Shown one piece after another: positions 9,449 to 42,857 of a DNA stretch of 51,840 nt (positions are counted from its first letter, which is position 1; each line of letters starts with the position of its first letter). Under the pieces are notes generated by a model that saw nothing but the letters and a program-made list of their open reading frames with translations, ran no database searches and was not told where the DNA came from. This stretch comes from a virus: the IMG/VR virus record IMGVR_UViG_3300041809_000571, positions 1-51,840 of that record. The stretch is one strand, 5' to 3'. Made by a program: the position numbers and the translations under genes.

Positions 9449-9516
9449 GCAACCTATTTCCCGTTAAATCCGTCAAACATACCGAAACCCCGTATTGGGG
9501 TATATGGAGGTGTGCC

Positions 9517-10588: not shown

Positions 10589-10590
10589 AG

Positions 10591-12105: not shown

Positions 12106-12106
12106 A

Positions 12107-12325
12107 TCAACCTTTCGGTACAAAGGTAGTGCAGTTTTCCAGTATCTTGATGTGGTTCTTCCCGCCGTGAGCCAGCCAAGCCTCTTTCGCCTCTTCCTCG
12201 GCTTCCTCCATGGTCTGTTTGGACGTTACCAACATCCAGAAGTTTCCGTCAATATGAGCAAAGACCTTGAAGGGACGCTCATACTCACTTTCCTTCCGAG
12301 ATTTCTCCGCATCAGTGATGTCCAT
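12107..12325 (-). CDS. hypothetical small acidic protein
   Basis: SD GGGGGA; TAA-ATG adjacency with the upstream gene. Confidence 0.5.
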   Translation of the reverse strand: MDITDAEKSRKESEYERPFKVFAHIDGNFWMLVTSKQTMEEAEEEAKEAWLAHGGKNHIKILENCTTFVPKG

Positions 12326-12892: not shown

Positions 12893-13031
12893 TGGGTCGC
12901 TCCTTTTTGGGCTTCTCCTGCACCGGGTGAACCTCTTTGGGTTTCCCGCAATGGCAGCACCCCGGACCGGTGTAGGTCGGATGCTCCGTGTAGGGATGAT
13001 TCTCGGGTTTGTAGAAACTTGGGTCGGTCAC
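12879..13031 (-). CDS. small Cys-containing protein (GPGCCHCGKP), GTG start
   Basis: GGAGAG SD then GTG overlapping the upstream TGA (GTGA); 50 aa; not in the ORF track because it is shorter than 60 aa. Confidence 0.3.
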   Translation of the reverse strand: MTDPSFYKPENHPYTEHPTYTGPGCCHCGKPKEVHPVQEKPKKERPNAND

Positions 13032-13462
13032 TGATTCTCTCCGGGATAAGGCGTCATGTGGGACACCTTGTAAGTGTCGGTCAGGGGAACGGTAATGAGC
13101 TTGTTCGCCTCCCGAGCTTCTTTCTCGGCGGCGATACGAGCGATGTTAGCGGCTCTCTCGGCCCGGATGACTTTGGCTTCCTCACGGGTCGCCAGCCGTC
13201 TGCGGTATCCGTCAAAACCGGTGTTCACTGTCTCGGGCTTAGTTTTCTTCCAGCTTCGGATAGTCCGGCTGTAGAACCTCTCCGGGCGGTTGCCGTTCCA
13301 GCTTGCCAGAACGTACTCGGAGTGCATACTGCCCTCTTCCCGAGGGTGGACTTCCACGATGCGCACGGGAAAGATAGCCACGGTGGAGATTGTGGTGTTT
13401 CCCATCTTCTGTCGCTGCACGTTCCAGACAGTCTGTCCGGGCTGGAGATTTTTGATGTTCAT
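13028..13462 (-). CDS. hypothetical protein (first gene of operon P1)
   Basis: ATG 13462 lies 9 nt after the GGGAGG of the promoter cassette; the ORF-track N-terminal extension runs through the promoter. Confidence 0.55.
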   Translation of the reverse strand: MNIKNLQPGQTVWNVQRQKMGNTTISTVAIFPVRIVEVHPREEGSMHSEYVLASWNGNRPERFYSRTIRSWKKTKPETVNTGFDGYRRRLATREEAKVIRAERAANIARIAAEKEAREANKLITVPLTDTYKVSHMTPYPGENQ

Positions 13463-25806: not shown

Positions 25807-26024
25807 GCAAGCTCCATTTCATAATCTTCGGGATGGGGAACGGGAGGGCCGCTGTAATAGGGATTGCGGTACCACACGTCCCGGTCAGAAAGAATCCACG
25901 CACGGTCGGGGTGCATGGCACCCACGTTCGTAGCATACTCCCTATCAGCTTCCGCTTGAGTTGCCATGTGGTCGGGCGGGTCAGGCTCAAAATCAAACAT
26001 AGAAGCTTCGGAATCGAATGCCAT
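25803..26024 (-). CDS. hypothetical acidic protein (first gene of operon P9)
   Basis: ATG 26024 follows cassette P9 (GGGAGGaaacaccATG). Confidence 0.5.
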   Translation of the reverse strand: MAFDSEASMFDFEPDPPDHMATQAEADREYATNVGAMHPDRAWILSDRDVWYRNPYYSGPPVPHPEDYEMELA

Positions 26025-26031
26025 GGTGTTT

Positions 26032-26054
26032 CCTCCCACTCTCAGTATACCACG
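26032..26054 (-). promoter_or_regulatory. conserved promoter+SD cassette P9
   Basis: tcgTGGTATACTgagagtGGGAGG. Confidence 0.6.
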
Positions 26055-26109
26055 AGATACACCAAAGTTACATGAATTTTTTTCTATGGAACCCTTATGT
26101 AGGAGAATT

Positions 26110-28149
26110 ATGGCTGGAAGCAGTCGTTTCAAAAAAGGCGGAATGATTGGTAAGCTGGTGTCGGAGCAGATAGCGAATGCTCCCCAACTGCTTAACGCCA
26201 TAGACTTTATTGAGTCCATACAGGGATTCAATGTGGAGTTGTTCCCCATCCAGAGGATGATTGTCAAGGCGATATTCGCCGTTCCCTTCGACTACAAGCC
26301 CAAGCCCGTGCCCATGTTTGACGTGTTCCGGGAGAAGCTCAACCGCATCGTGTCCGAAGAGGAATGCCTCCACATTCTCCACGAAGAGGGCAGATGCAAC
26401 ATCGGCGACTGGCGGGACATCCCCGAGCGGGGATACAATGAAGCCTGCATTATCGCCGGTCGTCGTGGTGGTAAGTCGGAGGTCGTAGCGGCCATTGGGG
26501 GATACAAGCTGTATCTCCTCCTTAACCAGAAATCTCCGCAGGAGTATTTTGGTCTCGTGCCCGGCAGTCCGATAGACTTCACCTTTTTGGCGCAGGACGA
26601 CTCCGGGTCCAACCGCCTCTACAACAAGCTCCGGGAAGGTGTCAACCGGGCACCCTTCTTCGGACCTTACCTCAAAAGCAGCAGCGGGAGCGTTTTGAAG
26701 TTCGTGACGGAGTCGGACCGGGGCAAGCCCGAGGTCACTCCCACGGTCATCTGCGAGTCCCGGCCTTGCACCACCAATGCTACCCGGTCGCCTTCCAACG
26801 TGTTTCTGGCCTTGGACGAGTTCGCCCACTTCCGGTCGGAGGTGGGGAGTACCTCGGATGAGGTCTACGGAGCGGCGAAGCCCTCCACGGCAAACTTCCA
26901 CCACGCCGAGCTTCCCAGTGGCGAATGGATAAGCAAAAAGACCATGCAGTTGCTTCCCCCCGAGGAGTACCGGGAGTTTCAGGACTCGCTTGTTCTCAGC
27001 ATTTCTTCGCCCATGACTCGTGTTGGTAAGATGTACGAGCTTCACAAGTTGGCGTTAGAGAAGGGCAAGGACTCCAACATCTTCACCATGCGGGTTTCCA
27101 CCGCTGAGATGAACCCCGAGATTCTGTCCAAGTTCCTGCACGACGAGTACGAGACCAACTCCCTGACCTTCAAGGCGGAGTATGGCGGGCAGTTCTTGGA
27201 CTCCTCCGAAACCTACGTCACTGAGGCCCAGATTAGGGCTTGTACGGATGTACAATACACGGATGAGCAATTCCCCAAGCCCATCCCCAGCACCGCCCGG
27301 CTGAACCTCGTTCGGTTCCACCCCTCCTGTGTGGGCAGACAATATTTCTGGGGTGTTGACCTTGGTATGATGAAAAACGCAACAGCCGTTGCTATCGGAC
27401 ATTTGGAGCACACGGGCGGTAAGAACCCCATCACCCTCGTTTATGACTACATCGACCGCATGATGGTGGGGGAGAAGTTCGAGGGTCCCGGCGTGGAGAT
27501 GCTCCCCGGAATTGAGAAATACGTCAAGTATCAAGCCCTGCCCTTGGAGGACATCCTCCTGTGGCTCCGGGCGCTCAACCGGGTGATGCCCTGCTACCGG
27601 GGGGTCACTGACCAGCACGGTGGTCAGCAACTCGTCCAATTGCTGGAGATAAACCAAATCTACAACGTGGAGCTTATCAACCTCACCACGGTTATCAATA
27701 GCCAGATGGCGTTCAGCTTAAAAGGCTACATGGATAACAAGCGGTGCCGGTTCCCCTATGTGCCCAAGTTCATGGATGAAATCCGGCTGGTAGAAGCGGA
27801 ATACGTCGGCAAATACCAGATTCGAGTGCAGGCCCCCGAGGAGAAGGGAGCCACGGATGACATGTGCGATGCCGTGGAAGAGGTCGCTTGGGTAGCCCAG
27901 AAGTGGTTGATGGAAGAAGGTGGGCTACGACAGGACCCCGGAGGCACCAGTCTGGCAATGCAGGAACAGTTGATGAAAACCCCTGTTCCTATTATGAACC
28001 TCGATAGTGTGTCTATGACGGAAATCAAGGTCATAGAAAGAATGCGTAAGTTACAGAGTTCATTGATGATGTCCCCCGGAACCTCGGTGGTAAGAAACCC
28101 CTTCCATGTGCGTGGAACTGCCCGTATGGGAGGCCGGGGAAGGAGATAA
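26110..28149 (+). CDS. terL: terminase large subunit
   Basis: Walker A IIAGRRGGKSE, Walker B LALDEF, C-terminal nuclease-sized domain; SD AGGAG; about 680 aa. Confidence 0.8.
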   Translation: MAGSSRFKKGGMIGKLVSEQIANAPQLLNAIDFIESIQGFNVELFPIQRMIVKAIFAVPFDYKPKPVPMFDVFREKLNRIVSEEECLHILHEEGRCNIGDWRDIPERGYNEACIIAGRRGGKSEVVAAIGGYKLYLLLNQKSPQEYFGLVPGSPIDFTFLAQDDSGSNRLYNKLREGVNRAPFFGPYLKSSSGSVLKFVTESDRGKPEVTPTVICESRPCTTNATRSPSNVFLALDEFAHFRSEVGSTSDEVYGAAKPSTANFHHAELPSGEWISKKTMQLLPPEEYREFQDSLVLSISSPMTRVGKMYELHKLALEKGKDSNIFTMRVSTAEMNPEILSKFLHDEYETNSLTFKAEYGGQFLDSSETYVTEAQIRACTDVQYTDEQFPKPIPSTARLNLVRFHPSCVGRQYFWGVDLGMMKNATAVAIGHLEHTGGKNPITLVYDYIDRMMVGEKFEGPGVEMLPGIEKYVKYQALPLEDILLWLRALNRVMPCYRGVTDQHGGQQLVQLLEINQIYNVELINLTTVINSQMAFSLKGYMDNKRCRFPYVPKFMDEIRLVEAEYVGKYQIRVQAPEEKGATDDMCDAVEEVAWVAQKWLMEEGGLRQDPGGTSLAMQEQLMKTPVPIMNLDSVSMTEIKVIERMRKLQSSLMMSPGTSVVRNPFHVRGTARMGGRGRR

Positions 28150-28917: not shown

Positions 28918-28952
28918 ATTTGGGCTTTCCCGCCCTTATTAGGGAGAAGACT

Positions 28953-29357
28953 ATGACACCAAAAGACCTACTGATTTTTGATTCCACCGCCGCTGCGGAC
29001 GGAATCTGGTACAAGATTGACAATGTCTCAGCGCTATCCATCCACATTCTCAATCTGGAGGCTAGCTGCGACACGTGGATTGAAGTGTCCAATAACCCCC
29101 TTTGCGATTATCTGCTTTATGGTGCGGCAAGCACCGCCGTGGTGGGTGTGGCAATGACCGGCAACCTCGGCACGGGAGGCAGTCCTTCGCCGCCCTCCAG
29201 TATGGATGAGCAGGATATCAGCTACAGCCTTGATGGCACGCAGTGCATGTGGTCTCCCTCTTGTCTTGTTTGGAAGTATGTCCGGGTGCGCAAGTCGTCC
29301 ACCGGCACTCCCATTGACGAGACCAAGGCTTACCTGTTCGGACAGGTCAACACCTAA
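28953..29357 (+). CDS. hypothetical beta-rich protein
   Basis: AGGGAGAAGactATG; the ORF-track TTG start was rejected. Confidence 0.45.
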   Translation: MTPKDLLIFDSTAAADGIWYKIDNVSALSIHILNLEASCDTWIEVSNNPLCDYLLYGAASTAVVGVAMTGNLGTGGSPSPPSSMDEQDISYSLDGTQCMWSPSCLVWKYVRVRKSSTGTPIDETKAYLFGQVNT

Positions 29358-29519
29358 CCGCAAAATCAGGTGAATATCAGTATCATTGAATAGAGGCTTC
29401 CCGGTCGGGTTTCCGAATGTAGTCAGTATTCGGATTTCGACGCACATAGGGGGACTTTAGCCCTCCTCTGAAACGGGCAAAGAGATGACCCTTGAATGGG
29501 TTCTCGCTCCGTGAGCATG

Positions 29520-29556
29520 GGACGGTGACTGACGACCGGGATTATTGTCACCGTCC
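29520..29556. terminator. 10-bp perfect-stem hairpin (GGACGGTGAC-N17-GTCACCGTCC) in the convergent gap, abutting the stop of the glycosyltransferase fusion gene
   Basis: the two stem arms are exact reverse complements; no U-tract follows on either strand. Confidence 0.35.
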
Positions 29557-31901
29557 TACTTTACCAAGAACAGCACCCGTTTTCCTTCCGGTGTTTCCAC
29601 GATTTCTTCGATGTGTTTCGGTATAATTTTGCTCAACTGCTTGTGGTAGGAAGACCCCAAGGGACACACCGCTGCAACCTTGAATCCCCTTGCCACGGCA
29701 CGGGCGACTTTCGCCCCAAGCAAGGTTCCTCGCCAGTCTTGACTCACTCCGCCCAGTGCTGCCGGTATTGCAATGGGTGTCATGGTTGGCGCTGCCATTA
29801 TTGAACCCGGAGGAGGAAGCCCCTTATTAGATTGAACCGGAGGAGTCAGGGGATGCGTTTGAGGTGAGGGTTTTGTTTGATTGAACCAAGGACGAACCCC
29901 CGTTGCCATTTCGTGGATTTTCCACATATCCTCTGTACTGGTAATTTGGGTCATAGCCTCCATGCTTTTCAGGTCCGAGTGATTCCTCCACTCAAAGATT
30001 ACATATTTGGAAAGCCGTCTGGGGTGTATTCCGGCTTTTCCAAGTACCTGTCCCACCCACCGGTCCTCAGCCCACTCCCCATCAAATTGGGCATTTACTA
30101 GCAATTTCAGGGAACGTTCAGAAAGCCAGTAGGCTCCCCCACTAACATATGGAAACTTCACGGTACCCTTGGGAAAATCAGGAATTCCCATGTTTGGGCA
30201 ACCCGCATCATGGGGAGGCGCATAAATACCCGCAAAGTCATCTGTCACTAATTCAAACTTATTCATGTTCAGATAACTGTCATCATCAGCCTTAACTAAT
30301 CGTTTATATCCATGGTTAAGTGTCCATTGGAAAAGGGCCTTGGATTTTAGAGTAAGAGATAGGTAGTCATCTGGTACTCCTAACCGTTTACCAGTGAATA
30401 CTTCAACGGTGTACCCGGCCTTCCGTGCTAAGGGAATCCAAGTCTTCTCTTGCATAGCTAAACGTGCTCGGTATTTCGGCTCGTCACAGGTGAGTATTCC
30501 AATAAGGGTTTCTTTGATGGGGGTAGGAATTGGGCGGTTATCAACCTCCTTGGGTACTACCCCGTCTATCACCACCAGCCTGTCGTCATCTATGCTTTCA
30601 ACCCGGAACTCTCTCGTCTCGCACTTCCATGGAATCCTAGCGGCTATCTGCTCGGGAGAGAAGACATCTTCGATTATGTAGACCCCGTTGGGTTTCAGGA
30701 TACGGGGAATTAGGACTGAGGCAGTCAGGATTTGATGCTCGGTCTGGTGTGAGCCGTCGTCTATGATGAGGTCGAAACCGGTGCCTAACATCTCGGCAGC
30801 CCGGAGTAACGACCCTTCGTCGCTCTGGTCGCACTGGAAGGACTTAATCCGGCCTTTGTTGATTAGGATGTCCGGCTTGATGTCTAAAGCGTATATTTCT
30901 GCCTGTGGGAAGTACTCTTCCCACATGAACAGGCTGGCTCCTACGATGTAGTCTTTTGGAGCCATGATAGCAGGGTAGCCTATGCCGATTTCCAAGACCT
31001 TCTTGATGTCCCTACCTTCGAGAAGCTCGTGGTAGTAAGGTGTATAGTCATGACGCACCGACACGGTCTTATCGGTCCTCCACTTTTTGGCGAGCTTGCA
31101 AAGACTCGTTTCTACGGGCATTTCCACCTCGTGTCTCCTTTTCAATTGCTCAAATAAACAGGTCGGGTCATACCGCCTGTTAGGGTCAAGCTTACTTCCT
31201 TCGTGCCAGTGAGAGGAGCTTATGTGAGCGGCATACGACTTAGGAGAGATATTCCAAGTCACTCCTCCTTTGACAAAGTGAAACCGAAGTGACGGCGGCA
31301 CGGCATCAAGCACAATGGGGGGTTTTATGTAGCGGGTAAGAGAGAACTCCGGGATAGCCTTCCGAAACATCCATGGGCCTATCACCATCCAATCCTGCGG
31401 GAGCTTCAACTTCGCCGTGTTCATCAGTTCAATGTGGGCGGCGATGTGCTGTAAGATGGGAGCTTGCTTTGGAGCTTTGAAGATACACCCGGTGATGCAC
31501 TTCATGTTGATATCTTCGGGGGCTGACGGCGGTGGGTCGTAAATCGACACGAGGCTGTTGGAATTGGGATTGTACGCCGTGAAAACATATGGGTCGGGAA
31601 AATCAAACGGGCGTAAGCAGACGGTATCCATATCCACGTACCATCCTCCCACGTGACGGATAAGCTGCACACGGAAGTAATCGGAGAAGTGCGACAGGTG
31701 GATGAAGTCTTTCCGGTCTTTGACGAGCGGTATTTCGTGGATGTCGTGAATGATGGTCCCAGCCGGAATCCCCTTTGTAGGCTCCGACGTATAAAGATGG
31801 AACTCGTGCCCATGGTCTTGGAAGGAGCGGATGCATAGCTTTTGAAGGTTATCCAACTTGGGGCCGCACCACACACCATTGATGATTTTATTGTCTGTCA
31901 T
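29556..31901 (-). CDS. tri-domain fusion: GT32-type DxD glycosyltransferase, SAM-dependent methyltransferase and GT31/Fringe-like galactosyltransferase
   Basis: N-terminus KIINGVWCGPK...GGWYVDMDTV (Gly_transf_sug-like); middle VLEIGIGYPA...DLIIDDGSH (class I MTase motifs I and post-I); C-terminus LVKADDDSYLNMN (GT31 DDD). ATG 31901 in ATGA overlap with the GT11 stop. Confidence 0.7.
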   Translation of the reverse strand: MTDNKIINGVWCGPKLDNLQKLCIRSFQDHGHEFHLYTSEPTKGIPAGTIIHDIHEIPLVKDRKDFIHLSHFSDYFRVQLIRHVGGWYVDMDTVCLRPFDFPDPYVFTAYNPNSNSLVSIYDPPPSAPEDINMKCITGCIFKAPKQAPILQHIAAHIELMNTAKLKLPQDWMVIGPWMFRKAIPEFSLTRYIKPPIVLDAVPPSLRFHFVKGGVTWNISPKSYAAHISSSHWHEGSKLDPNRRYDPTCLFEQLKRRHEVEMPVETSLCKLAKKWRTDKTVSVRHDYTPYYHELLEGRDIKKVLEIGIGYPAIMAPKDYIVGASLFMWEEYFPQAEIYALDIKPDILINKGRIKSFQCDQSDEGSLLRAAEMLGTGFDLIIDDGSHQTEHQILTASVLIPRILKPNGVYIIEDVFSPEQIAARIPWKCETREFRVESIDDDRLVVIDGVVPKEVDNRPIPTPIKETLIGILTCDEPKYRARLAMQEKTWIPLARKAGYTVEVFTGKRLGVPDDYLSLTLKSKALFQWTLNHGYKRLVKADDDSYLNMNKFELVTDDFAGIYAPPHDAGCPNMGIPDFPKGTVKFPYVSGGAYWLSERSLKLLVNAQFDGEWAEDRWVGQVLGKAGIHPRRLSKYVIFEWRNHSDLKSMEAMTQITSTEDMWKIHEMATGVRPWFNQTKPSPQTHPLTPPVQSNKGLPPPGSIMAAPTMTPIAIPAALGGVSQDWRGTLLGAKVARAVARGFKVAAVCPLGSSYHKQLSKIIPKHIEEIVETPEGKRVLFLVK

Positions 31902-32701
31902 AACTTTATCCACCTCTGGGGAACAATGTCCGAAGGGTCTTTGGTACACCCGGCAAACCATTTTTTGGGTGCAATCACAATCCTTCCCTCTGGTGAACAC
32001 TCCCCGAACCAAGCTCCCCACCACCCGAAAGAACTATTGGGAAGGATAGCGTGCTTGCAAAGTCCCATGAGGAAAAGGTCTTCGTGTTCTGTGCCTTGAC
32101 CTGTATCCCCACTTCCCATCCGATTGTGCTTTATGACCCGAAGACCTTGGAAGTTTTGCTCACACCACTCCGGGTCGTCGGAGAATATGAAAAACTTAAC
32201 GTTCTCCTTGCGTTCTTGGATGTATGCCAGTGCCACTTTATAATACTCCATCGTCATGTTGCCGTGGTAGGCGGCGACGGTCGGTATTAGGTAGTCCGTC
32301 CTGCGGACATGCATAAAGGCACTATTAGGGCTAGCCAGAATCTCGTGAGCTATCTCTTGCGATTGCTCACTCACCGGGTTTCGCAGGGAAAGCTCCGACC
32401 GGACCAACCTCTCGTCAAAGTACTTTTCTGTCTGCCAGCATCCGATGAAATGCGTGCCATTCGGAAGAGTGTACACATTCTTATCGTAAGTGAAGATTGG
32501 CTCTGCATACACTGGGCCACGAATATCTTTGGTGAAAGTTACCTTGGTGTTGAATACCCCTAGCCCATAGGCACGATGGCATCCAACCCCCAGCCCACTT
32601 GTGTAAAAGAACAACTCCTCTTTACGTGCCTTTGAGACTGACCGACCGAAGGCGTATTGAAACATCTGATTTCCTAAACCGCCCTCTAAACGAACAAGCA
32701 T
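31898..32701 (-). CDS. alpha-1,2-fucosyltransferase (GT11 family)
   Basis: hallmark motif I GGLGNQMFQYA right after the start (MLVRLEGGLGNQMFQYAFG). Confidence 0.8.
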   Translation of the reverse strand: MLVRLEGGLGNQMFQYAFGRSVSKARKEELFFYTSGLGVGCHRAYGLGVFNTKVTFTKDIRGPVYAEPIFTYDKNVYTLPNGTHFIGCWQTEKYFDERLVRSELSLRNPVSEQSQEIAHEILASPNSAFMHVRRTDYLIPTVAAYHGNMTMEYYKVALAYIQERKENVKFFIFSDDPEWCEQNFQGLRVIKHNRMGSGDTGQGTEHEDLFLMGLCKHAILPNSSFGWWGAWFGECSPEGRIVIAPKKWFAGCTKDPSDIVPQRWIKL

Positions 32702-32703
32702 AG

Positions 32704-33405
32704 CTAATTCCCACCCTTCCACTCACCCTGATTGAGTTTTTCTAGGTGTCGTATCTTTGGGACGAAACTCTTCAAATCCCCCGTCATCCAACGCTCTGGT
32801 GACACCAAGTACTTTAGGGCGGGAAAACAATACGCCGGGGATAGGATTCTAGCGGGAGGATTGCTGGCAAGATAGCAGTTTAGGTGGGATTCGTCATGCC
32901 AGATGGCGATAATCCCATTGCTGCTGTCGATATCCACATTTTTTGCCAAGGTTTTACACATCCCCAAGAAAGCTTTGGAGTCACCACCTTGTAAACACCC
33001 TTGGTAGTAATTGGGGGGGTTTCCCTTTACGCACGCCGTAGACTCCGGGTTACGCTCGAAGGTCGTAACATAGCCGGGGTGAAGGACAGCGGTTATGCCG
33101 TCCGAAAAAACTTCTTCCCCCTCAATCTTGCTGCACGCAAGCATGTCGATATCCATGTAGAAAAGTTGGTCGTAACGAGAAAGAGATGTCTCTTGCTCAA
33201 GGATTGCGTGGTAACGCATGAGCGTAGCGTGAGGCCATCCTAAGTGGGCGTGAGGCACCTTTATGGCGTCAAACGAATCTTCGCTGTCCGTAAACAGCAT
33301 CACATCGTGCGGAGGAAAGAACTCATCCAAAGAGTTAATCAGGGGGGAGACATACCGCATATACTGTTCTCCTCCCGTGGCAATCAGCAAAATCGCTGTT
33401 TTCAT
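32704..33405 (-). CDS. GT6-family glycosyltransferase (histo-blood-group A/B transferase-like, bacterial BoGT6a type)
   Basis: N-terminus MKTAILLIATGGEQY and the block IWHDESHLNCYLASNPPARILSPAY, characteristic of the GT6 family; ATGA coupling with the upstream gene. Confidence 0.85.
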   Translation of the reverse strand: MKTAILLIATGGEQYMRYVSPLINSLDEFFPPHDVMLFTDSEDSFDAIKVPHAHLGWPHATLMRYHAILEQETSLSRYDQLFYMDIDMLACSKIEGEEVFSDGITAVLHPGYVTTFERNPESTACVKGNPPNYYQGCLQGGDSKAFLGMCKTLAKNVDIDSSNGIIAIWHDESHLNCYLASNPPARILSPAYCFPALKYLVSPERWMTGDLKSFVPKIRHLEKLNQGEWKGGN

Positions 33406-34622
33406 AGGGTTTTTATCTCCAATCTGCGGTGTGCCCTAGCGATGTCATCCCTAACCTCGAATACCCAGTCAGGATGTGCAGCAAGTATCTGGCTTTTCAT
33501 GCTCTCAATGGTCGGATACCCGTTGTTTCCGTCAAATGCCCGGATATCATCCACAAGGAGGACAATGTCCGACTTACCCCAGCCAAGAATAGCGTCAAGT
33601 TCGCCTTGTGCCGCACTATCAACGCTTCCCCGCACCGTATTGTCTCCAGACCAGTGAGCATCCAGCCAGAAAATGGTGGGTTTGTTCAGGAGTGGAAAAA
33701 TCTTATACAGCACCAAAGCACTATCACCCTGATAAAGATGAATATTTTCTTTGCCGATAAACCGTCCTTGGCAATGCCTGTAAAAGTCCGAGCTTAACTC
33801 AATAGAGTAAGCGTGCTCGAAGAACCCATGGACCTCCGCTAAAGTATCTCCTCCGCAGGTTCCGGTTTCCACAAGAAGCGGGGTTTTGAATTTGAGAGCA
33901 TACTCTACAATAGTCCACTGCTTATAGGCAGGGGGTGGTGATGGGTTATGCCATGCCATGGTTATCTCCTCGATTACAGGGGTTTTCATTACTCTCTCAA
34001 TCTCCGCCCACGGGACCGATGGGAACGAGGGGGATGGTACTCGCTTAACAGCGGCATTAGTCTTGTGAATGGTGGAAACCAATAAGGTCAAGTCAGCAAG
34101 GTCACACCAACGGTCCATGGGAATTTTCCGCATAAAGGCGGTGTCGGCTCCCTGCACAAGATTCTCGAACTTGTTCTTCTCCCAGATGGACCGACGCCAC
34201 GCCGGGGCGGCAAGCCATTTCTGTGGAGTGAGGTTTTTGTAAATAAACCCCTGCTCGGTGCCATGCAGGTAGTAGTAAAGTGTGGTGGTGCCACAGATGT
34301 CATACTGAGGGTCGGTGAGAGGTTGAACCTGCTTGGCTACCCTATTGGAGGCGTAAAAGTCGTCGTCATCCCATACGATGGCGATTTCTCCCGTGGAGTT
34401 CTCCATGCAGATGTTCATGAGTTGCCCGTGACGGAGCTTCTCGCCGGGCAGCCGGACGTATTTGATGCGGGGGTCATTGGGGAGTAGGTCCTTGATGGGG
34501 TCCGTCCCGTTATCAACGATAACCCACTCCAACTCTGGGTGAGTTTGAGACTGGAAACACGAGATACACCGGGGCCAGAACTCCCTGCGGTTGTGCGTCG
34601 GCGTGAGACAAGAAACTAGCAC
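33402..34622 (-). CDS. GT2 glycosyltransferase fused to a C-terminal SAM-dependent methyltransferase-like domain (GTG start)
   Basis: LVSCLTPTHNRREF (GT2 N-terminal motif), VWDDDDFY (DxD); C-terminal LVETGTCGGDT (MTase-like); GGAGAGagaaataGTG with TAGTG overlap. Confidence 0.7.
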   Translation of the reverse strand: MLVSCLTPTHNRREFWPRCISCFQSQTHPELEWVIVDNGTDPIKDLLPNDPRIKYVRLPGEKLRHGQLMNICMENSTGEIAIVWDDDDFYASNRVAKQVQPLTDPQYDICGTTTLYYYLHGTEQGFIYKNLTPQKWLAAPAWRRSIWEKNKFENLVQGADTAFMRKIPMDRWCDLADLTLLVSTIHKTNAAVKRVPSPSFPSVPWAEIERVMKTPVIEEITMAWHNPSPPPAYKQWTIVEYALKFKTPLLVETGTCGGDTLAEVHGFFEHAYSIELSSDFYRHCQGRFIGKENIHLYQGDSALVLYKIFPLLNKPTIFWLDAHWSGDNTVRGSVDSAAQGELDAILGWGKSDIVLLVDDIRAFDGNNGYPTIESMKSQILAAHPDWVFEVRDDIARAHRRLEIKTL

Positions 34623-35053
34623 TATTTCTCTCTCCGTTCCCGGCGCTTAAGTTCAAACCTCCGCAGGTAGTCCACCGCCGCTTGTAGGATGATTTGGTTG
34701 TCCCGAAAAGAAGCTAGCCCCCAGTCGCAACGGGTGCAAAGCAGTCCTCGGACTTCCCTCGTCGCCGGGTCTCGGTCGATATGGGAAGATGACCGGTCCA
34801 TACTGGGGATGGGGTCATGGCAGACCGCACAGGCCCGGTGGAGTTTCTCCCAGAGAACGACTATCTCCGCATCCGACATGCCGTTCTGGTACTTGCGCAC
34901 ATGCGGGGTGTTCTGTTCCTTAAAACAGAGCTTACACCGGCTACGTTTGCCACTGGGCTGGGACTTGCAGTTGCCAAAGTTATCCAGCGGCAGCCACGCT
35001 TTGCAGCCGGGGCACCACTTCTCTTTGTCATTGAACATCCTGTGTCTGCCCAT
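34622..35053 (-). CDS. Endonuclease VII-like (HNH) nuclease with N-terminal Cys cluster
   Basis: CAVCHDP...SHIDRDPATREVRGLLCTRCDWGL matches the Endo VII H-N-H core. Start is uncertain (ATG 35053, 35038 or 35110); the region upstream of 35053 is AT-rich and looks intergenic. Confidence 0.6.
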   Translation of the reverse strand: MGRHRMFNDKEKWCPGCKAWLPLDNFGNCKSQPSGKRSRCKLCFKEQNTPHVRKYQNGMSDAEIVVLWEKLHRACAVCHDPIPSMDRSSSHIDRDPATREVRGLLCTRCDWGLASFRDNQIILQAAVDYLRRFELKRRERREK

Positions 35054-35184
35054 AAGTGCCCTGTATTTAACCCCTTTGAATTTATCTCCAATTAGGGGTC
35101 CATAGTTCATTTCTTTGATTTTAAGAGTTTTTCGACTATCAACCTCACTATTGAGGCGTCCAAATCGGACACAGGAGAGATAAC

Positions 35185-35973
35185 ATGTCAAGACTATCGA
35201 CTACTCAGATTCTTCAAAACACCAAGAACTACACCGTGTACCCCACGGTTCCCCTTGCGTTGACCCTACCCGCTGTCACTACGGCAAATGACTTGCTCGT
35301 TTGTCTCGTGTTTGCACAAAGGTCTTCGTATGGATTCAACACCGACAACCTGACGGCGGAAACCGTCGCCCCGGTTGTTTCCGACGACAAGAACAACACT
35401 TGGACTCTACGACAGAGCCTAATCAACCTGTATCAGGAACTTTCCGCATCTCCGCCACAATCACCGCCTGTTATCTCCCCTGACGCCTCTTGGAATTTCC
35501 CGAGCGTGTATCTTTTCACCGCTCCGGTCAGTGTCGCCAACGGGCAGAATGTGTACGTCACTGACGCCGGATTGGGCGACTATGTGGCTTCCCCGCCCAT
35601 CGTTTCCCCGCCCATCGCTTTGGGTCGTCCCGTGTTTGACGGCGGTATCAAGGCCCTGTTGTTTGAAGTCCAAGGCCCCAGCACCGATACCGTGGACACT
35701 TCCGGCAAGACCACAGGCGGTCAGACGGCTCTCGGCTATCACCTGATTACCCCCGGTGGAACCAACCGGCTGGTTATCGAGGCTGGTGTGCTCATCGACA
35801 GTTCCGCTCTCGGCTTGGGCACAGGAGCGACGTATCAGCACTCCGCCGCTTACCCGGCTGGAAGCTCCTACTACTTGGTGCAGTCCACCACCCAGACGAC
35901 CGCCGTTGCGTCGGCTGGATTCTCCAACCCCGTGAACTATGCGGGCGGCGTCATCGCCATTGCAATTGTGTAA
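35185..35973 (+). CDS. putative structural/fibre-like protein (Thr/Ser/Gly-rich)
   Basis: GGAGAGataacATG; N-terminal module resembles those of the 2815..4611 protein. Confidence 0.5.
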   Translation: MSRLSTTQILQNTKNYTVYPTVPLALTLPAVTTANDLLVCLVFAQRSSYGFNTDNLTAETVAPVVSDDKNNTWTLRQSLINLYQELSASPPQSPPVISPDASWNFPSVYLFTAPVSVANGQNVYVTDAGLGDYVASPPIVSPPIALGRPVFDGGIKALLFEVQGPSTDTVDTSGKTTGGQTALGYHLITPGGTNRLVIEAGVLIDSSALGLGTGATYQHSAAYPAGSSYYLVQSTTQTTAVASAGFSNPVNYAGGVIAIAIV

Positions 35974-36007
35974 GTTGCTCATCCACCATGTGTGGAAGGA
36001 GTACCGG

Positions 36008-36047
36008 ACCCGAGGGGCACTACGCATCCCCTCGGGTTCAGCCTTTT
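36008..36047 (+). terminator. rho-independent terminator candidate
   Basis: ACCCGAGGGG-N10-CCCCTCGGGT stem, then tcagcCTTTT, 35 nt after the stop of 35185..35973. Confidence 0.5.
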
Positions 36048-36220
36048 AAGCGGCCATTCTTTTTCCCAGAAACTCAGTATTTATATGCATGATACTTTTA
36101 GACACACTTCCCCTACTCCCCCAATACTCCATTTTTTCCATATTTTATGTGAATTTCTTCAATTCCTCTGGTAAGACCGGTGCGGCAGCCGGGAAAGCGG
36201 TCATATGACCGGGAGAAAAA

Positions 36221-36952
36221 ATGGAATCCACGCCTTACATGAACTCGGTGACCTCCGCCCGAGCCATGCTTCTAACTGAGGAAGAATCACTGGAGGGCGG
36301 CACGACTATCAGCTTGGAGACCCAATCGGACCTCCAAGAGGATGACGTTTTTACCTACATTCAGGAGAACTTCCCCAACTTCCTGAAAATGCTAAAGTAC
36401 CTTAGCCAAGAGGACCAAGATATGTTGTTGAGTTATTACCTACTTGGTAAGACTCAGACCACCTTGGCTACCATCTTCAAATCCACCCAGACGGTGTGTT
36501 CCTTCCGCATCCGCATGGCAATCAAAGTCATCGGGGCGTTCCTTCTCTTCGGCGAGCCAACTGCCGAGATACTGGCGGAGATACTTTCTAGCGCCGGGCT
36601 GGAGGACAGCCTCAAGGGCGGGTTGAGCAAGGCAGTCATTGAGTATGCCAAGTGCCGGTCGTTCCAGCAGGTCGCCGAGACTTTGGGCCTACACCGCCCT
36701 GACGTGCGTCGGGCGATGAGCCGGGCGGCTAGGACCCTCCTGAACTCCAAAGACAGCCGGGAGGCGGCAATGGCGGCTTGGATACATAGTCTGGTGGACA
36801 AATCCAACCCCGTGGGACCGGGATACAGCAAAAGGAAGCTTTTGAAGGAGGGTCACATCTTCAAGCAGGATGGGGAACTCCTCGGCAACTTCCGAGTCAA
36901 TATCGAGGACCCGGAGTTTGACCAACTGTTCGTATCGAGAGCAAATCGCTAG
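36221..36952 (+). CDS. protein with two sigma-70 region-4-like HTH domains (putative transcription factor)
   Basis: DMLLSYYLLGKTQTTLATIFKSTQTVCSFRIRMAIKVI and AVIEYAKCRSFQQVAETLGLHRPDVRRAMSRAARTL resemble sigma region 4.2; SD GGGAGaaaaaATG. Confidence 0.5.
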   Translation: MESTPYMNSVTSARAMLLTEEESLEGGTTISLETQSDLQEDDVFTYIQENFPNFLKMLKYLSQEDQDMLLSYYLLGKTQTTLATIFKSTQTVCSFRIRMAIKVIGAFLLFGEPTAEILAEILSSAGLEDSLKGGLSKAVIEYAKCRSFQQVAETLGLHRPDVRRAMSRAARTLLNSKDSREAAMAAWIHSLVDKSNPVGPGYSKRKLLKEGHIFKQDGELLGNFRVNIEDPEFDQLFVSRANR

Positions 36953-36960
36953 GAGGAATC

Positions 36961-37149
36961 ATGAAGAATTGGAAGACGAAGAAGGCCGATGGGAAGACAT
37001 TCAGTACGTTCCGGGTGAATATCGGGGGGCACCATGTCCTCGTGGACTGCGTGCGGATGAAGCAGGCGAAGGACTATGTCCGCAAGCAGTTCCCCGAGTT
37101 TATTCGTAATCACGGCAATAACTCCTTCACCATCAAGAGGGTGAAGTGA
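36961..37149 (+). CDS. hypothetical small basic protein
   Basis: AGGAGGAATCATG. Confidence 0.45.
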   Translation: MKNWKTKKADGKTFSTFRVNIGGHHVLVDCVRMKQAKDYVRKQFPEFIRNHGNNSFTIKRVK

Positions 37150-37973
37150 ATCTAACCCATGGTAGCCTGTTTTCCGGCATCGGAATGATGGACTACGGGT
37201 TGGAGTTGGCGGGATGGAAAACAGTTTGGCAGGTGGAGAATAACGAGTACTGCCAAGCTCTGCTCCGAGAGCATTGGCCGGTTACGCAAAAGTTCAGCGA
37301 TGTGAGGTCTTGTGGACGACACAATCTCGAACCTGTCACCCTTATCAGCGGAGGATTTCCTTGCCAGAATATCTCCGAAGCTGGAAAACTGGAAGGACTC
37401 GGAACTCCCGATAGCCCCACCGACCGCAGCGGCCTTTGGTTCCATTTCCGTCGCATCATCCATGAACTCAGACCTGCTTGGGTTCTGGTTGAGAACGTGG
37501 TTAGGCTCATGCTTAGAGACGATGGGGATACCGTCCTCGCCGATTTGGAAGCGGAGGGTTACGAAAGGGTGCCGCTCGTGGTGGGAGCTTCGGATTGCGG
37601 AGCACCACATAAGAGGCAACGGGTCTTTGTGCTTGCCCACCGCCACGACCCCGACAGCGATTATGTTCCCGCTCCCGGAGTGGAGGCCGCAAGACTTTTT
37701 CCAACTCAAATCCGGGAGATTGCGGAAGCGCAGCGAAGATGGGCACGAGCGAAGCATGAATTGGGCACAAGAACTTGCGGTGAGGGCGGTGATTCAGAAT
37801 CCTGCGCTCGAACCTACCATGGAATTGTGCGAAGATTTTTTGGGAATTCCACGTGGCTGGAGCAGACTCACGCCCTCGGGAACACAATCGTACCTGTCAT
37901 CCCGTGCCTTATCGGAGGCTACGTTGCGGCGGCGGAGAAGGAAATGGAAAGTCGAAACCTCAGTCCCCGATGA
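37146..37973 (+). CDS. DNA (cytosine-5)-methyltransferase
   Basis: motif I LFSGIGMMDYG, motif IV GGFPCQ, motif VI VLVENV, motif VIII KRQRVFV; GTG start in GTGA overlap with the upstream gene. Confidence 0.85.
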   Translation: MNLTHGSLFSGIGMMDYGLELAGWKTVWQVENNEYCQALLREHWPVTQKFSDVRSCGRHNLEPVTLISGGFPCQNISEAGKLEGLGTPDSPTDRSGLWFHFRRIIHELRPAWVLVENVVRLMLRDDGDTVLADLEAEGYERVPLVVGASDCGAPHKRQRVFVLAHRHDPDSDYVPAPGVEAARLFPTQIREIAEAQRRWARAKHELGTRTCGEGGDSESCARTYHGIVRRFFGNSTWLEQTHALGNTIVPVIPCLIGGYVAAAEKEMESRNLSPR

Positions 37974-40180: not shown

Positions 40181-40433
40181 GGCTGAGACTGTAGGGAAGC
40201 ATGGACCGGCGCACACCGGAGTCTTTCTGTGGTTCTACCTCGGGTTTGTAGTCGAAGTCCGCAGGCTCGTGGGGATGCATATCCAACCACTCCGCCACGA
40301 CACTCCAAACTTCATCGTCAGAATCGAGGACATCCAAGGTAAGTAGGGGATTCTCTCCGAAGTCTTCCGATTGAAACTCCCGCCACGGAAGTTCTCCCGC
40401 AATCTTCATTCCCCCTCGGGTCAAGAAAACCAT
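40128..40433 (-). CDS. hypothetical acidic protein
   Basis: 1-nt stop/start overlap with the Endo VII gene; its 3' end overlaps 39671..40180 by 53 nt. Confidence 0.4.
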   Translation of the reverse strand: MVFLTRGGMKIAGELPWREFQSEDFGENPLLTLDVLDSDDEVWSVVAEWLDMHPHEPADFDYKPEVEPQKDSGVRRSMLPYSLSPMLRRASAAGYPAFRRG

Positions 40434-41008
40434 TACGCCTCCTTAACATTTATAGCAAGAGTGGTTTTGTTATGATATTTATCAAGATAGGTTTTGGCGG
40501 CTTCATAACGCATATGATTTGCTTCTAAGAGACCCACTAAAAAATTGCAAGCAGCGCACAGAAGTCCACGATTTTCTCCAGTAAGATGGTCGTGGTCTAC
40601 CATAAAGGGCAGGTTATTTTTTCCATCCCTAGTTTTTCCATTATCAGAAACCCCACAAATGGCACATTTTCCGTTTTGCTTGACTAATAAAGCAGCATAT
40701 TCCTCTAATGTCATTTTGTATTTTCTGAGCAAGTGTCGTGCTCTTGCGATAGATTGATATGCCTTAAGCTTTTCAGGATTGACAGCTATCTCTGTCTTGA
40801 AATAACAATTCCCACAGATTCCTCCCCCTTCTAGTTTCTTTCGCTTTTTGCAAAGAGAACAAATACCATGGCGTTTATCAGCCCTACAAGCCTTACATTT
40901 CCTACTCCAATAAATCCGCACTTCACCGGAAACGAGAGCACAAGGACGACGAGAAAAGTTATTTTCTAGGTCTAATTCTTTTTGACATTTCAAACAAGTC
41001 TTAAGCAT
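40433..41008 (-). CDS. Endonuclease VII-like (HNH) nuclease, AT-rich free-standing gene (putative homing endonuclease)
   Basis: CAICGVSDNG...MVDHDHLTGENRGLLCAACNFLVGLL; N-terminal CxxC pairs; clearly lower GC than the flanking genes. Confidence 0.65.
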   Translation of the reverse strand: MLKTCLKCQKELDLENNFSRRPCALVSGEVRIYWSRKCKACRADKRHGICSLCKKRKKLEGGGICGNCYFKTEIAVNPEKLKAYQSIARARHLLRKYKMTLEEYAALLVKQNGKCAICGVSDNGKTRDGKNNLPFMVDHDHLTGENRGLLCAACNFLVGLLEANHMRYEAAKTYLDKYHNKTTLAINVKEA

Positions 41009-42857
41009 TAGAATCCCTAGTACCAGTTACGAAACGATACTTAAGAAGTAATGACTCGGAATCGAGGGTCTCCGCCCGGACAAAGACTTCATACACAAAT
41101 CCCCCGCCCGGCGAACTGCACCAGACGGCGGCTTGCGCCCAAGCGTCATTGATGGCCTCTTGGATTTCCGAATCGGTCAGCTTCTCCACGAGTGCCTTGA
41201 CCCGGCTGCCGGTGATGTTCAGGGTGGTGCTGCCTCCCTGCAACTGCTGTTGCTCCATCTGGTCCAACTGGACTTCACCGATGCCCGGAATCTTGTCCAG
41301 AGGCGGTCGGCTAGTCAGCTTGTAGGCGGAGATGAAAGCTGCTGCGAGTTCCGCCACTACATGCTTGAGGAAGGTGCTGAACTTCTCCTTATCCTGCATC
41401 GTGCCTGCGGTCTTCATCAGACCGGCAAGGACGGTAAGAGCATCAGGTCCGCCGCCGTACTGGCTGCCGAACTCTTGAGAGAATCCCTCACCCTTGATAT
41501 CGTTCTCACTGAGTAAGGGGTTGATTCCCTCGTCTCCTGCCTTGGGGAAATCCTCCATCTCGTTATGCCGCCTGATTTCATCCGGGGTGGTCTGTTGTTG
41601 TCCCTCGGGAATTTGCGGTTTGTAGTCCAGCCCCAGTCCCGCCGCTCCAGCCGGGGAAGTGCTGACATAAGAAACCTTGGTCAGGTTATCAAAAGTGTTG
41701 TCCAAAGCAGCGGTGAGGAAGCCGGGTCCCTCGGGTTCATTGCCGTGGAAGGACGGGGCATCCAAGGTGTTCCCCGCAATGTCGGCGTCCATGGGGGCGT
41801 TTGTGGCGTTCGGGTAATCCACTATCTCATGCTGGATTTCAGGGTAGAATTCCCGGAGCGCTTGACCGGGGAAGAAGAAATTGAAGCCCGCTTTCTTATC
41901 CGGGGCCTTCCAGTTTTCGGTCTCTCCGCATCCGCAGCTTTCTCCCTTTCGTACCACCTCATGGCACTTGGGGCAGGTAACGGAGGCCGCTTCCTTGACG
42001 GGAGCGCCGAGGGCCTTGGCGGTTACGATGTTCTCAGGTTTGGCTCCATCCACATAGCTGATGCCGGACGTAATTGGCTCCGCCTTGAAGTCGTTACCCC
42101 ACTTCGTTGCCGCCTTGACGACGAAGCTTCCCGCCTGCTTGGCATTGGCAAAGTCTGAGGTATATTTCTTACCCTTCAACGTGTACTTGACTTCCATTCT
42201 AGCCTCCTTGGACTTCTTTGGCGTATAGCCGTTACAACCGCAAAGGTCACAGTACCCTTTTTCATCATGGTCATCCCGGTTGTGGCTGCATACGCAGACA
42301 TCACCTTTGTGGTCGTCGTATGCTCCTCGGATACCCATGGCTTTCAGCCCCTCGGTGATATCCGGGGGAAGTTCCTGCTCTCGTGTTCTGCCCATAAGAC
42401 TGTCCTGATAACCCTGCTCAAGCTCAGCTTCATCCATGTAAAAGGAAGCTATTTCCTTCCAGTTTGGTTCTACCCACTCCCTCGGACCCCCACCACTCAT
42501 GCCGGGGTCGGCCTTCATCAGGTCGATTATCTCAGCGAAAATATCCGCTGCCCGGTTGCCGGTCGGTTCCGGCGTCTTACCCTCTATCTGGCGAGCCTCG
42601 AACTCTCCCCGCTCCTGTAAAGCTTCAGCGTCTTCTTCATCCCATTGCTGCTTGACTTGATTCCGATATTTCCTGAAAGTCTGGGCGAATTGGTTAGCCA
42701 AGGTATCGAGGTTGAAATTTCCCTTACCACGCTGCTGGAGTGCCTGCAACGCCATGGTCTGGGCTTTCTTATGGTCCCGCTGGTCGTTGGAGATGTAACT
42801 GTAGACAACCATCGTCTGCCAGTCGGTCCAACCCTCCACCTCGGCTCGCTTACGCAT
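41001..42857 (-). CDS. large hypothetical protein (618 aa) with two Cys clusters
   Basis: CVCSHNRDDHDEKGYCDLCGC and CPKCHEVVRKGESCGCGE; coupled to the stop of the 1604-aa gene. Confidence 0.55.
   Translation of the reverse strand: MRKRAEVEGWTDWQTMVVYSYISNDQRDHKKAQTMALQALQQRGKGNFNLDTLANQFAQTFRKYRNQVKQQWDEEDAEALQERGEFEARQIEGKTPEPTGNRAADIFAEIIDLMKADPGMSGGGPREWVEPNWKEIASFYMDEAELEQGYQDSLMGRTREQELPPDITEGLKAMGIRGAYDDHKGDVCVCSHNRDDHDEKGYCDLCGCNGYTPKKSKEARMEVKYTLKGKKYTSDFANAKQAGSFVVKAATKWGNDFKAEPITSGISYVDGAKPENIVTAKALGAPVKEAASVTCPKCHEVVRKGESCGCGETENWKAPDKKAGFNFFFPGQALREFYPEIQHEIVDYPNATNAPMDADIAGNTLDAPSFHGNEPEGPGFLTAALDNTFDNLTKVSYVSTSPAGAAGLGLDYKPQIPEGQQQTTPDEIRRHNEMEDFPKAGDEGINPLLSENDIKGEGFSQEFGSQYGGGPDALTVLAGLMKTAGTMQDKEKFSTFLKHVVAELAAAFISAYKLTSRPPLDKIPGIGEVQLDQMEQQQLQGGSTTLNITGSRVKALVEKLTDSEIQEAINDAWAQAAVWCSSPGGGFVYEVFVRAETLDSESLLLKYRFVTGTRDSNA

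Follow-up and report, generated by a model that had tools for sequence, protein, structure and literature searches.

The locus described here is a run of five co-directional genes on the minus strand (29556-35053) of a 51,840-nt stretch of the viral record IMGVR_UViG_3300041809_000571, which we call the window and to whose positions all coordinates refer. The window belongs to a metagenomic contig of 364,142 bp, recorded at ENA as ERZ27249816 k141_1180871, and the sequence we read comprises the window and about 10 kb before its start. In the direction of transcription the genes encode an Endonuclease VII (Endo VII)-like nuclease, a glycosyltransferase family 2 (GT2) domain fused to a methyltransferase, a GT6 and a GT11 homologue, and a large multi-domain protein (Table 1). 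Given the family assignments, all of which pass Pfam thresholds or rest on PDB or profile searches, we read the operon as four enzyme genes with five glycosyltransferase and two S-adenosylmethionine (SAM)-dependent O-methyltransferase domains, and all seven catalytic domains appear to be intact. None of the four enzymes has a predicted transmembrane segment. A first-pass annotation of this DNA had described the five genes as translationally coupled. The description holds for the nuclease stop and the start of the GT2 gene (a TAGTG overlap), for the GT2 and GT6 genes (ATGA) and for the GT11 and multi-domain genes (ATGA), but the GT6 and GT11 genes do not overlap and are separated by a 2-nt gap (TAGCTATG). 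An identical cassette (100% protein identity) is present in three further assemblies, and tblastn finds the nuclease gene in loci L003 and L004, which both represent the same phage.

Table 1. Features of the locus and of its immediate surroundings (window coordinates; aa, amino acids; GC, fraction of G+C; GC3, the same at third codon positions; ORF, open reading frame)
Feature	Position	Strand	Remarks
orf145	28920-29357	+	small conserved neighbour, other side of the cassette
Hairpin	29520-29556		GGACGGTGAC, 17-nt loop, GTCACCGTCC; its start falls within the stop codon of the multi-domain gene
Multi-domain gene	29556-31901	-	781 aa
Proline-rich linker and C-terminal domain	29559-29831	-	linker about residues 691-721; 60-aa domain, residues 722-781, alpha-beta-alpha-beta-beta; conserved 3' arm
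GT31 beta-1,3-glycosyltransferase domain	29832-30461	-	residues 481-690; DDD motif
MycE/TylE-like sugar O-methyltransferase domain	30462-31106	-	residues 266-480
GT32 domain	31107-31901	-	residues 1-265; DXD motif DMD
Exchangeable interior	29785-33985	-	4.2 kb; GC 0.497; GC3 per module 0.44-0.64
GT11 gene (alpha-1,2-fucosyltransferase homologue)	31898-32701	-	267 aa; motifs GGLGNQMFQYA, HVRRTDY
GT6 gene (homologue of retaining alpha-1,3-Gal/GalNAc-transferases)	32704-33405	-	233 aa, minimal catalytic domain; DXD (DID), WHDESH, donor-site YYQGCLQGG
GT2 fusion gene	33402-34622	-	406 aa
Divergent class I SAM methyltransferase domain	33405-33947	-	residues 226-406, fused to GT2; motifs ETGTxxG, WLDAH
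GT2 domain	33984-34622	-	residues 1-213; DDDD motif; conserved 5' arm
Endo VII-like (HNH/homing-type) nuclease gene	34622-35053	-	143 aa by gene callers, ORF start possible up to 35191; first gene of the run; belongs to the conserved 5' arm
AT-rich divergent intergenic region, cassette/orf262	35054-35184		GC 0.389; partly conserved in L039
orf262	35185-35973	+	all-beta protein; conserved divergent neighbour of the cassette

The large terminase gene lies 1.4 kb from the cassette, and its product is 44% identical to the terminase of the sole cultured relative, Tunturiibacter phage Tunturi 5, which is a jumbo myovirus (309 kb) of an Acidobacteriota host from tundra soil. A DNA search with 29400-35400 gave no match among 50,697 phage records. 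In relatives whose terminase is 73-98% identical, the slot between orf145 and orf262/orf243 likewise holds a glycan cassette, with contents that differ in every one of them. Locus L040 has a GT2, a GT11, a methyltransferase and then a fusion of GT6, GT31 and the C-terminal domain of our multi-domain protein, which we refer to as the docking domain for reasons given below. L045 lacks a GT6 and has two GT11 genes, a methyltransferase and a fusion of two GT32 domains with the docking domain, while L037 encodes a GT2, a methyltransferase, an epimerase, another GT2 and a GT32-GT2-docking domain fusion. L090 combines a GT2-GT11 fusion, an FkbM-type methyltransferase, a 239-aa protein, a GT31-docking domain fusion and an extra methyltransferase. 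Further fusions are found in wider databases, namely GT6-GT32, GT6-GT31-GT32-GT2, methyltransferase-GT6 and GT11-methyltransferase.

The borders of the variable part can be placed by comparison with L090, contig_59630 of ERZ25039540, whose terminase is 94-97% identical. Nucleotide identity is 82-91% through orf243, orf262, the Endo VII gene and the GT2 domain (the latter with 93% amino acid and 82% nucleotide identity) and ends at 33986, the border between GT2 and methyltransferase. Homology is found again from 29784, where the docking domain starts, and extends via the hairpin into orf145 and the terminase. Between these points (29785-33985) there is no nucleotide similarity to L090 or L039, as against 82-91% identity in the flanks. 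L090 retains only two arms, one made of Endo VII and the GT2 domain, the other of the C-terminal domain and the hairpin. The exchange breakpoints coincide with domain borders, and it is at these borders that domains are shuffled and fused. In our opinion, this is what is new here: as judged from the alignments, a modular cassette occupies one slot across a clade related to Tunturi 5, and its domains are reassorted at their borders.

Base composition agrees with this map. The glycosyltransferase genes have a GC of 0.505 against 0.544 for the window and form its lowest 5-kb stretch (standard deviation of 5-kb windows 0.018). The AT-rich island noted in the first-pass annotation is thus real, but the dip is modest (0.50 versus 0.54) and limited to 29785-33985; the arms, at 0.538-0.571, are backbone-like. 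The low-GC stretch coincides exactly with the exchangeable interior, and GC3 varies by module. It could be argued that the region is a moron, that is, a foreign island recently acquired from the bacterial host, and indeed both the GC of the interior relative to the overall value and its GC3, compared with 0.65-0.77 in backbone genes, would fit such an origin. We nevertheless consider it improbable. Among representative genomes of 185,579 species, the nearest bacterial GT6 is only 39% identical and none comes from Acidobacteriota, whereas phage and metagenome relatives reach 47-62%. Moreover, a cassette fills the same slot in several related phages, and in these relatives its GC stays within about 0.02 of the flanks over a range of 0.50-0.67. 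The dip appears better explained by an interior imported from another phage of slightly lower GC. Because of the map of arms and interior, the flank-like GC in relatives and the distance to bacterial GT6, we regard the locus as an exchangeable cassette that is fed from a phage gene pool, with no recent bacterial import, and an exchangeable interior between conserved arms describes it better than a foreign insertion does. Low GC was also considered as a general trait of such cassettes and discarded, as it is not seen in L040. As to the range of composition, L040-L043, with 73% terminase identity, have a GC of 65-67% versus 54% here, from which it follows that the hosts of a single phage clade differ greatly in composition.

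The Endo VII-like protein matches Endonuclease_7 (PF02945; 6.5e-11, 42.4 bits versus a cut-off of 23.6; here and below, Pfam matches are scored against curated cut-offs) and phrog_2633 (2.3e-25). Its gene has a GC of 0.571 and a GC3 of 0.70, as in the backbone. Hence the first-pass annotation named the nuclease correctly, but in counting it as part of the glycan island it went too far: by sequence it is a gene of homing-endonuclease type, not a glycan enzyme, and it marks the conserved 5' arm. The gene occupies the same position in L039, L040 and L090, and a GIY-YIG gene is found instead in L037, so that the 5' arm always has a homing-type nuclease gene, mostly Endo VII-like. This constant presence suggests that nuclease-induced breaks may drive the exchange. 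An extra 224-aa ORF occurs in L039, between orf262 and Endo VII, and in L090; it has no recorded family match and is HNH-like by eye only. A second Endo VII-like gene of the window (40433-41008, minus strand; phrog_2914, 5.9e-25) lies between orf618 and orf169; with a GC of 0.39 it is the strongest compositional outlier in the window and looks like a recent homing-endonuclease insertion.

A hairpin and an AT-rich gap had been proposed as bounds of the region, and both exist. The hairpin has a 10-bp stem (-24.2 kcal/mol, z = -2.5) without a U tract. However, the segment 29363-29558 is kept beside orf145 in L038, L039 and L090, even with the cassette block inverted in L039, and the hairpin therefore belongs to the left flank. 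The inversion itself is seen when L039 6400-12982 is compared with window 29358-36952: the block of cassette, orf262 and orf243 is turned around relative to the terminase, which is 98% identical. Scans for sigma-70 promoters and intrinsic terminators gave counts at or under the shuffled expectation, with no sigma-70-like match above it in the AT-rich gap.

With respect to the enzymes, the first-pass annotation had named their families from the letters alone, and its naming stands up well: GT32, GT31, GT11, GT6, GT2 and Endonuclease_7 all score above the Pfam cut-offs. The GT6 homologue, which had been called A/B-transferase-like on account of a motif that is indeed present, matches Glyco_transf_6 (PF03414) at 7.6e-21 (74.6 bits versus 25) and phrog_3317 at 4e-40; it matches NCBIfam Gltr_6 at 3.6e-40, which is under that model's own cut-off. 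Its best PDB match is BoGT6a (4ayj, 2e-30), followed by human GTA/GTB at about 5e-17. The DID motif aligns with NAN of BoGT6a, and IWHDESHLN is kept. The protein ends about 37 residues past the catalytic core, with a hydropathy maximum of 0.78, and is without the C-terminal basic-hydrophobic membrane-binding domain of bacterial GT6. By these features we assign it to the minimal, DXD, presumably metal-dependent clade 1, the type of cyanophage P-SSM2 and of Parachlamydia PaGT6. A minimal DXD-type GT6 clade of phage and environmental members has been described before; PaGT6 transfers GalNAc solely to fucosylated acceptors, and both PaGT6 and BoGT6a, where characterised, use Fuc-alpha-1,2-Gal acceptors only (PMC3516806).

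The donor-site motif of the GT6 reads Q-G-C, versus L-G-G, M-G-A and A-G-G in characterised GT6 enzymes, and this type is common to soil relatives and a minority of cyanophage GT6. Since the cysteine stands in place of the glycine by which GalNAc-specific enzymes accommodate the N-acetyl group, the motif would argue for galactose (Gal) over N-acetylgalactosamine (GalNAc) as the donor sugar. A different phage (L036, a 102-kb contig) carries a further cassette at 7832-13071, beside an endolysin, with GT31, GT6, GT11, a GT6-GT32-GT2 fusion and an NDP-sugar epimerase/dehydratase; its two GT6 paralogues have the donor-site motifs C-G-G and Q-G-C.

The motifs GGLGNQMFQYA and HxRRxD define the GT11 family. 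The GT11 homologue, whose hallmark the first-pass annotation had recognised, matches Glyco_transf_11 (PF01531) at 1e-22 (81.2 bits versus 23.9) and phrog_2644 at 1.5e-46 across residues 6-267; in the PDB it drew only herpesvirus protease matches, which we judged spurious. GT6 and GT11 genes lie no more than 8 kb apart in about 20 of 26 viral and in 17 of 37 bacterial loci, and from this co-occurrence the two enzymes appear to be functionally coupled.

The GT2-methyltransferase fusion was also correctly called, although its halves differ in how they are recognised. The GT2 domain matches Glycos_transf_2 (PF00535) at 1e-18 (68.2 bits versus 23.3) and SpsA (1h7l) at 1.7e-5, its acidic motif lies in WDDDDF, and its GC of 0.546 is backbone-like. 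The C-terminal half alone has no Pfam and no PDB match. A profile of its family (A1), however, matches PIMT at 1.7e-5 and family-3 O-methyltransferases at about 4e-4 in the PDB, over only some 55-110 residues, and 7 of the 31 members of the family match Methyltransf_24. In cyanophages the homologues bear the annotation methyltransferase, and in relatives the domain is standalone or part of other fusions. Hence we take it for a divergent class I methyltransferase, an assignment made at the level of profiles.

The 781-aa protein had been described as a tri-domain GT32-methyltransferase-GT31 fusion. All three domains are confirmed, and a fourth part has to be added, a proline-rich linker with a rare 60-residue domain at the C-terminus. 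The GT32 domain matches Gly_transf_sug (PF04488) at 1.9e-6 (28.9 bits versus 23) in a short stretch, residues 64-100, that includes YVDMDT; Caps_synth is matched below cut-off (1.5e-4), and homologues of the domain also match Gb3_synth and Caps_synth. The middle domain matches MycE (3ssm, 4.7e-19), TylE (8ia9, 4e-16) and phrog_21658 (2.4e-13). In MycE/TylE-type enzymes the motifs DDGSH and (I/V)ED hold the base and the metal ligands, and here IIDDGSH and YIIED align with VIDDGSH and YVIED of the solved enzymes. The N-terminal auxiliary/tetramerisation domain of MycE is unmatched, the match being confined to chain residues 185-327, and it is the GT32 domain that precedes; by alignment the domain is thus a homologue of the MycE/TylE catalytic domain and not a full member of the family. 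It also matches mycobacteriophage methyltransferases that adjoin glycosyltransferases. The GT31 domain matches Galactosyl_T (PF01762) at 8.9e-7 in the full protein and at 3.3e-8 when isolated (34 bits versus 23), has the motif KADDDSY and is modelled by AlphaFold2 with a confidence score (pLDDT) above 90; Foldseek relates the model to B3GNT2 (2e-8), B3GalT5 (2e-7) and B3GalT6, within a range of 2e-8 to 1e-5.

In the same model the linker is disordered (pLDDT below 50) and the C-terminal domain is well defined (87-93). A HMMER scan of 1.84 billion representative proteins finds this domain in only 15, always at the C-terminus of a multi-domain glycosyltransferase or methyltransferase protein and mostly right after GT31. 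Its identity is 67% in L040, where the catalytic domains are 48-67% identical, and 95% in L090, so that its conservation between relatives is no lower than that of the catalytic domains. An amphipathic membrane helix was considered for this segment and rejected, as a hydrophobic-moment scan and AlphaFold2 give a small globular alpha/beta domain. From the model and its constant position we infer a docking or tether module.

What would such a set of enzymes do? The domain identities, the solubility, the exchange of the cassette and the conserved arms are read from sequence; the linkages, the order of action, the donor sugars, the role of the tether and the acceptor are proposals. The inverting GT2 and GT31 domains may lay down a beta-linked backbone, for example Gal/GlcNAc-beta-1,3 (GlcNAc, N-acetylglucosamine). 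GT11 would then add alpha-1,2-fucose (Fuc) to galactose from GDP-Fuc, the metal-dependent DXD-type GT6 would cap the fucosylated galactose with an alpha-1,3 hexose, and GT32 might attach another sugar in alpha linkage. O-methylation of sugars, and thereby the capping of hydroxyl groups, would fall to the MycE-like and the second methyltransferase domain. The proline-rich tether and the docking domain could keep the last enzyme, and hence the line, on the acceptor. Recombination would swap the interior module by module between the arms, plausibly aided by the flanking homing-type nucleases. A fucosylated, Gal/GalNAc-capped and O-methylated oligosaccharide had been anticipated in the first-pass annotation, and the domain set needed for it does appear to be present, at the level of families. 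Two other suggestions made there find no footing. Mimicry of vertebrate antigens is without support: the sole cultured relative infects an Acidobacteriota host of tundra soil, and the GT6 belongs to a known phage and environmental clade. As for lysogenic conversion, the window holds no integrase or other evidence of lysogeny, and there are no membrane proteins of seroconversion type.

Taken together, we tentatively propose, well short of certainty, a phage-encoded soluble cytoplasmic line of glycan assembly whose acceptor is a phage structural protein, organised as an exchangeable cassette that yields glycan "serotypes"; related phages would carry different serotypes because the interior is exchanged between conserved arms. 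The choice of acceptor is the delicate part. By analogy, we prefer a structural protein to a host envelope glycan, a preference which is itself tentative. All four enzymes are soluble, nothing on record in the vicinity points to lipid-carrier machinery, and the last enzyme bears a protein-like tether; one of the methyltransferases resembles those beside mycobacteriophage glycosyltransferases; and the cluster O mycobacteriophages and chlorovirus A064R offer direct precedents for soluble viral sets of glycosyltransferases and methyltransferases that glycosylate virions. Several points weigh against this proposal. A virion fold is recognisable neither in orf262 nor in orf145, which adjoin the cassette, the window contains no capsid gene, and no GDP-fucose synthesis gene is present in the sequence read; fucose donor must therefore be supplied by the host or from elsewhere on the 364-kb contig. 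Membership of a glycosyltransferase family, as far as sequence goes, predicts mechanism and not specificity. Besides, peripheral cytoplasmic transferases also build O units linked to undecaprenyl diphosphate (Und-PP), as do WbnH/J/K/I of E. coli O86, so solubility does not exclude a host-envelope target, and authors of cyanophage genomes favour host-surface modification for homologous clusters.

Indeed, the same enzymes and the same glycan could serve a host envelope glycoconjugate, with a host-started Und-PP unit being extended by the phage enzymes, flipped by the host and ligated onto lipopolysaccharide (LPS) or extracellular polysaccharide. The surface of the infected cell would thereby be changed for superinfection exclusion, or against the adsorption of progeny to debris. 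This is the standing hypothesis for the GT11/GT6 clusters of P-SSM2 and other cyanomyoviruses; the blood-group-B-like O unit of E. coli O86 is made by the same enzyme families on Und-PP, bacterial GT6 products are surface antigens (PMC3516806), and a glycan that masks a receptor would be equally hypervariable. However, no priming transferase, flippase, polymerase, ligase or export gene of Wzx/Wzy type has a recorded Pfam match within about 20 kb on either side, where many genes are without any match. The enzymes have no membrane-binding segments, and the GT6 is without the basic-hydrophobic membrane domain of its bacterial counterparts. Known phage seroconversion systems (GtrABC, Oac) use integral membrane proteins; the cassette proteins have no transmembrane segments, and no such Pfam families are recorded in neighbouring genes. 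A jumbo phage that is presumably lytic would also invest heavily in carrying seven catalytic domains and a protein-like docking domain, and the window showed no lysogeny genes. In our opinion a host-envelope target remains a strong rival, though on balance we doubt it. A target in DNA is another matter. The cassette might glycosylate hypermodified bases against restriction, as in the glucosylated hydroxymethylcytosine of T-even phages, and a C5 cytosine methyltransferase gene (37146-37973), a ligase and a Pyr_excise gene lie nearby, one relative has a Mom-like gene in its locus, and one cyanophage paper raises DNA glucosylation for its glycosyltransferases. Yet characterised members of GT11, GT6 and GT31 extend glycans and need sugar acceptors (PMC3516806), no hydroxymethylase or base-modifying pathway is seen in the sequence read, and no DNA glycosyltransferase family was matched. 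We also know of no precedent for a methylated, fucosylated oligosaccharide on DNA, and we consider this target highly improbable.

Returning to the proposal of a virion-coating line, its most specific form is that of a "serotype locus": in a clade of soil jumbo phages, a tethered, Lego-like enzyme line would coat the virions with a short glycan that differs between near-identical phages, the present allele being H/B-like and methylated, and whole modules would be swapped between a GT2-domain arm and an arm formed by the docking domain, which has not been described before, under promotion by the homing-type nucleases at the arm. As a whole we consider this form rather unlikely.

It should be stressed that blood-group-type transferases in phages are not new. 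Many cyanomyoviruses have GT11/GT6 pairs, which were described in 2005-2012; those annotated in P-SSM2, P-SSM5, the ACG-2014f group, Bellamy, DSL-LC02 and others are adjacent or close together and accompanied by GT2 enzymes and methyltransferases. The annotations of dozens of cyanophage genomes place the two genes side by side, and PHROGs has phage families for both. These clusters have been discussed since 2005 as modifiers of the host surface ("LPS"), without experimental test. Like the present locus, the cyanomyovirus clusters (S-SCSM2R included) have a GT11 near a minimal DXD-type GT6, 30-38% identical to ours, with GT2 and methyltransferases alongside and in large myovirus genomes. They differ in being long arrays of single-domain genes with nucleotide-sugar epimerases, whereas here seven domains are packed, with fusions, into four genes, a tethered domain is present at a C-terminus and the recombination arms are conserved. 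The donor motif of most cyanophage GT6 is (A/C)-G-G instead of Q-G-C, and the host lineage is different, the phages here being relatives of an Acidobacteriota phage. The cluster O (Corndog-like) mycobacteriophages likewise have an O-methyltransferase and tandem soluble glycosyltransferases near packaging and structural genes, and their acceptors are the capsid and the tail tube; the likeness here is one of gene content, and they have other glycosyltransferase families, with no GT6 or GT11, no multi-domain fusions and no docking domain.

Multi-domain soluble transferases encoded by a virus are known from chlorovirus PBCV-1, in A064R and in A111/114R with its three glycosyltransferase domains. 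A064R is soluble, joins two glycosyltransferase domains and one methyltransferase domain in one chain, as here, and builds a capsid N-glycan, and mutations in it give antigenic variants. However, the two chlorovirus proteins share no sequence kinship with ours, act on N-glycans of a eukaryotic virus, have another domain order and lack a tether domain. The logic of backbone, alpha-1,2-Fuc by GT11 and alpha-1,3-Gal/GalNAc cap by GT6 is that of the E. coli O86:B7 WbnH/J/K/I, BoGT6a and PaGT6 systems, and PaGT6 has the minimal DXD architecture in common with our GT6; but those are bacterial chromosomal loci with export machinery and at most 39% identity to the GT6 here, and BoGT6a is metal-independent (NXN) with a membrane-binding C-terminus. 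Bacterial O-antigen and capsule loci have conserved flanks and a mosaic, compositionally deviant glycosyltransferase interior that differs between close relatives. The present locus resembles them in its conserved flanks and exchanged interior, and differs in that it belongs to a phage, its arms are protein domains (GT2, docking) and homing-type nucleases flank it.

Concerning the surroundings, orf145 and orf262 have no match in Pfam, PDB or PHROGs. The former is fast-evolving, with 60-61% identity in relatives whose terminase is 94-98% identical; the latter is a candidate partner or acceptor, as yet unproven. orf243, a sigma-region-4-like regulator paired with orf262, matches Sigma70_r4_2 below threshold only; we considered it as the counterpart of the Tunturi 5 sigma factor and found no similarity. 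The C5 cytosine DNA methyltransferase gene mentioned above (plus strand; phrog_363, 6e-57) lies two genes past the cassette, and its product is 58% identical in L040 over residues 1-148, where that locus ends. Ser/Thr-rich beta proteins are encoded on the plus strand at 1434-5579 and immediately ahead of the window on the contig. Two of them, at 2815-4611 and 4611-5579, have Big_3_5 Ig-like domains, and upstream there is an Mtd_N-like protein. A role as fibre or decoration proteins is probable, which would make them natural candidates for glycan acceptors. A low-GC patch (0.44-0.46) lies at 7000-8500, and the ORF at 7587-8321 has many lysine-rich repeats of about 11 residues, of the type "NPE..K", with no family assignment.

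The large terminase here (25966-28149) has 727 aa, while in close relatives it is one longer ORF of 1548, 1035 or 1089 aa (L039 544-5190, L045 10079-13186, L090 13167-16436) that contains in-frame insertions of about 1-2.5 kb. Inteins are the most likely identity of the insertions, which are absent from this phage. In L047-L052 the genes for the 1604-aa and 618-aa proteins, which are encoded at 41001-47671 (minus strand) in the window, immediately precede the terminase gene in the same orientation, so that, judging by gene order, the backbone is rearranged here relative to those loci. L047-L052 are more distant relatives, with 51-65% terminase identity and no glycan cassette in the flank read (about 10 kb in the longer loci).

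The main interest of the locus lies in its cassette-exchange architecture, the shuffling of domains and the rare docking domain. The phage GT11/GT6 clusters were already known in 2005, but a demonstration of their target is still awaited, and the present locus makes that question approachable by experiment: it is compact, with four genes and clear domain borders, it has natural "allelic" variants in near-isogenic backgrounds, and the docking domain could be used as bait for the acceptor. The Q-G-C type GT6 represents an uncharacterised donor-site variant of the blood-group transferase family, and recombination at domain boundaries amounts to a natural modular shuffling of glycosyltransferases that may be of use to protein engineering. 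Should the virion turn out to be the acceptor, the jumbo phages of soil bacteria would join mycobacteriophages and giant algal viruses as bearers of glycan coats, and phages would diversify their surface glycans by cassette exchange, as bacteria do. A "serotype locus", if true, would then be a viral counterpart of bacterial O-antigen diversity.

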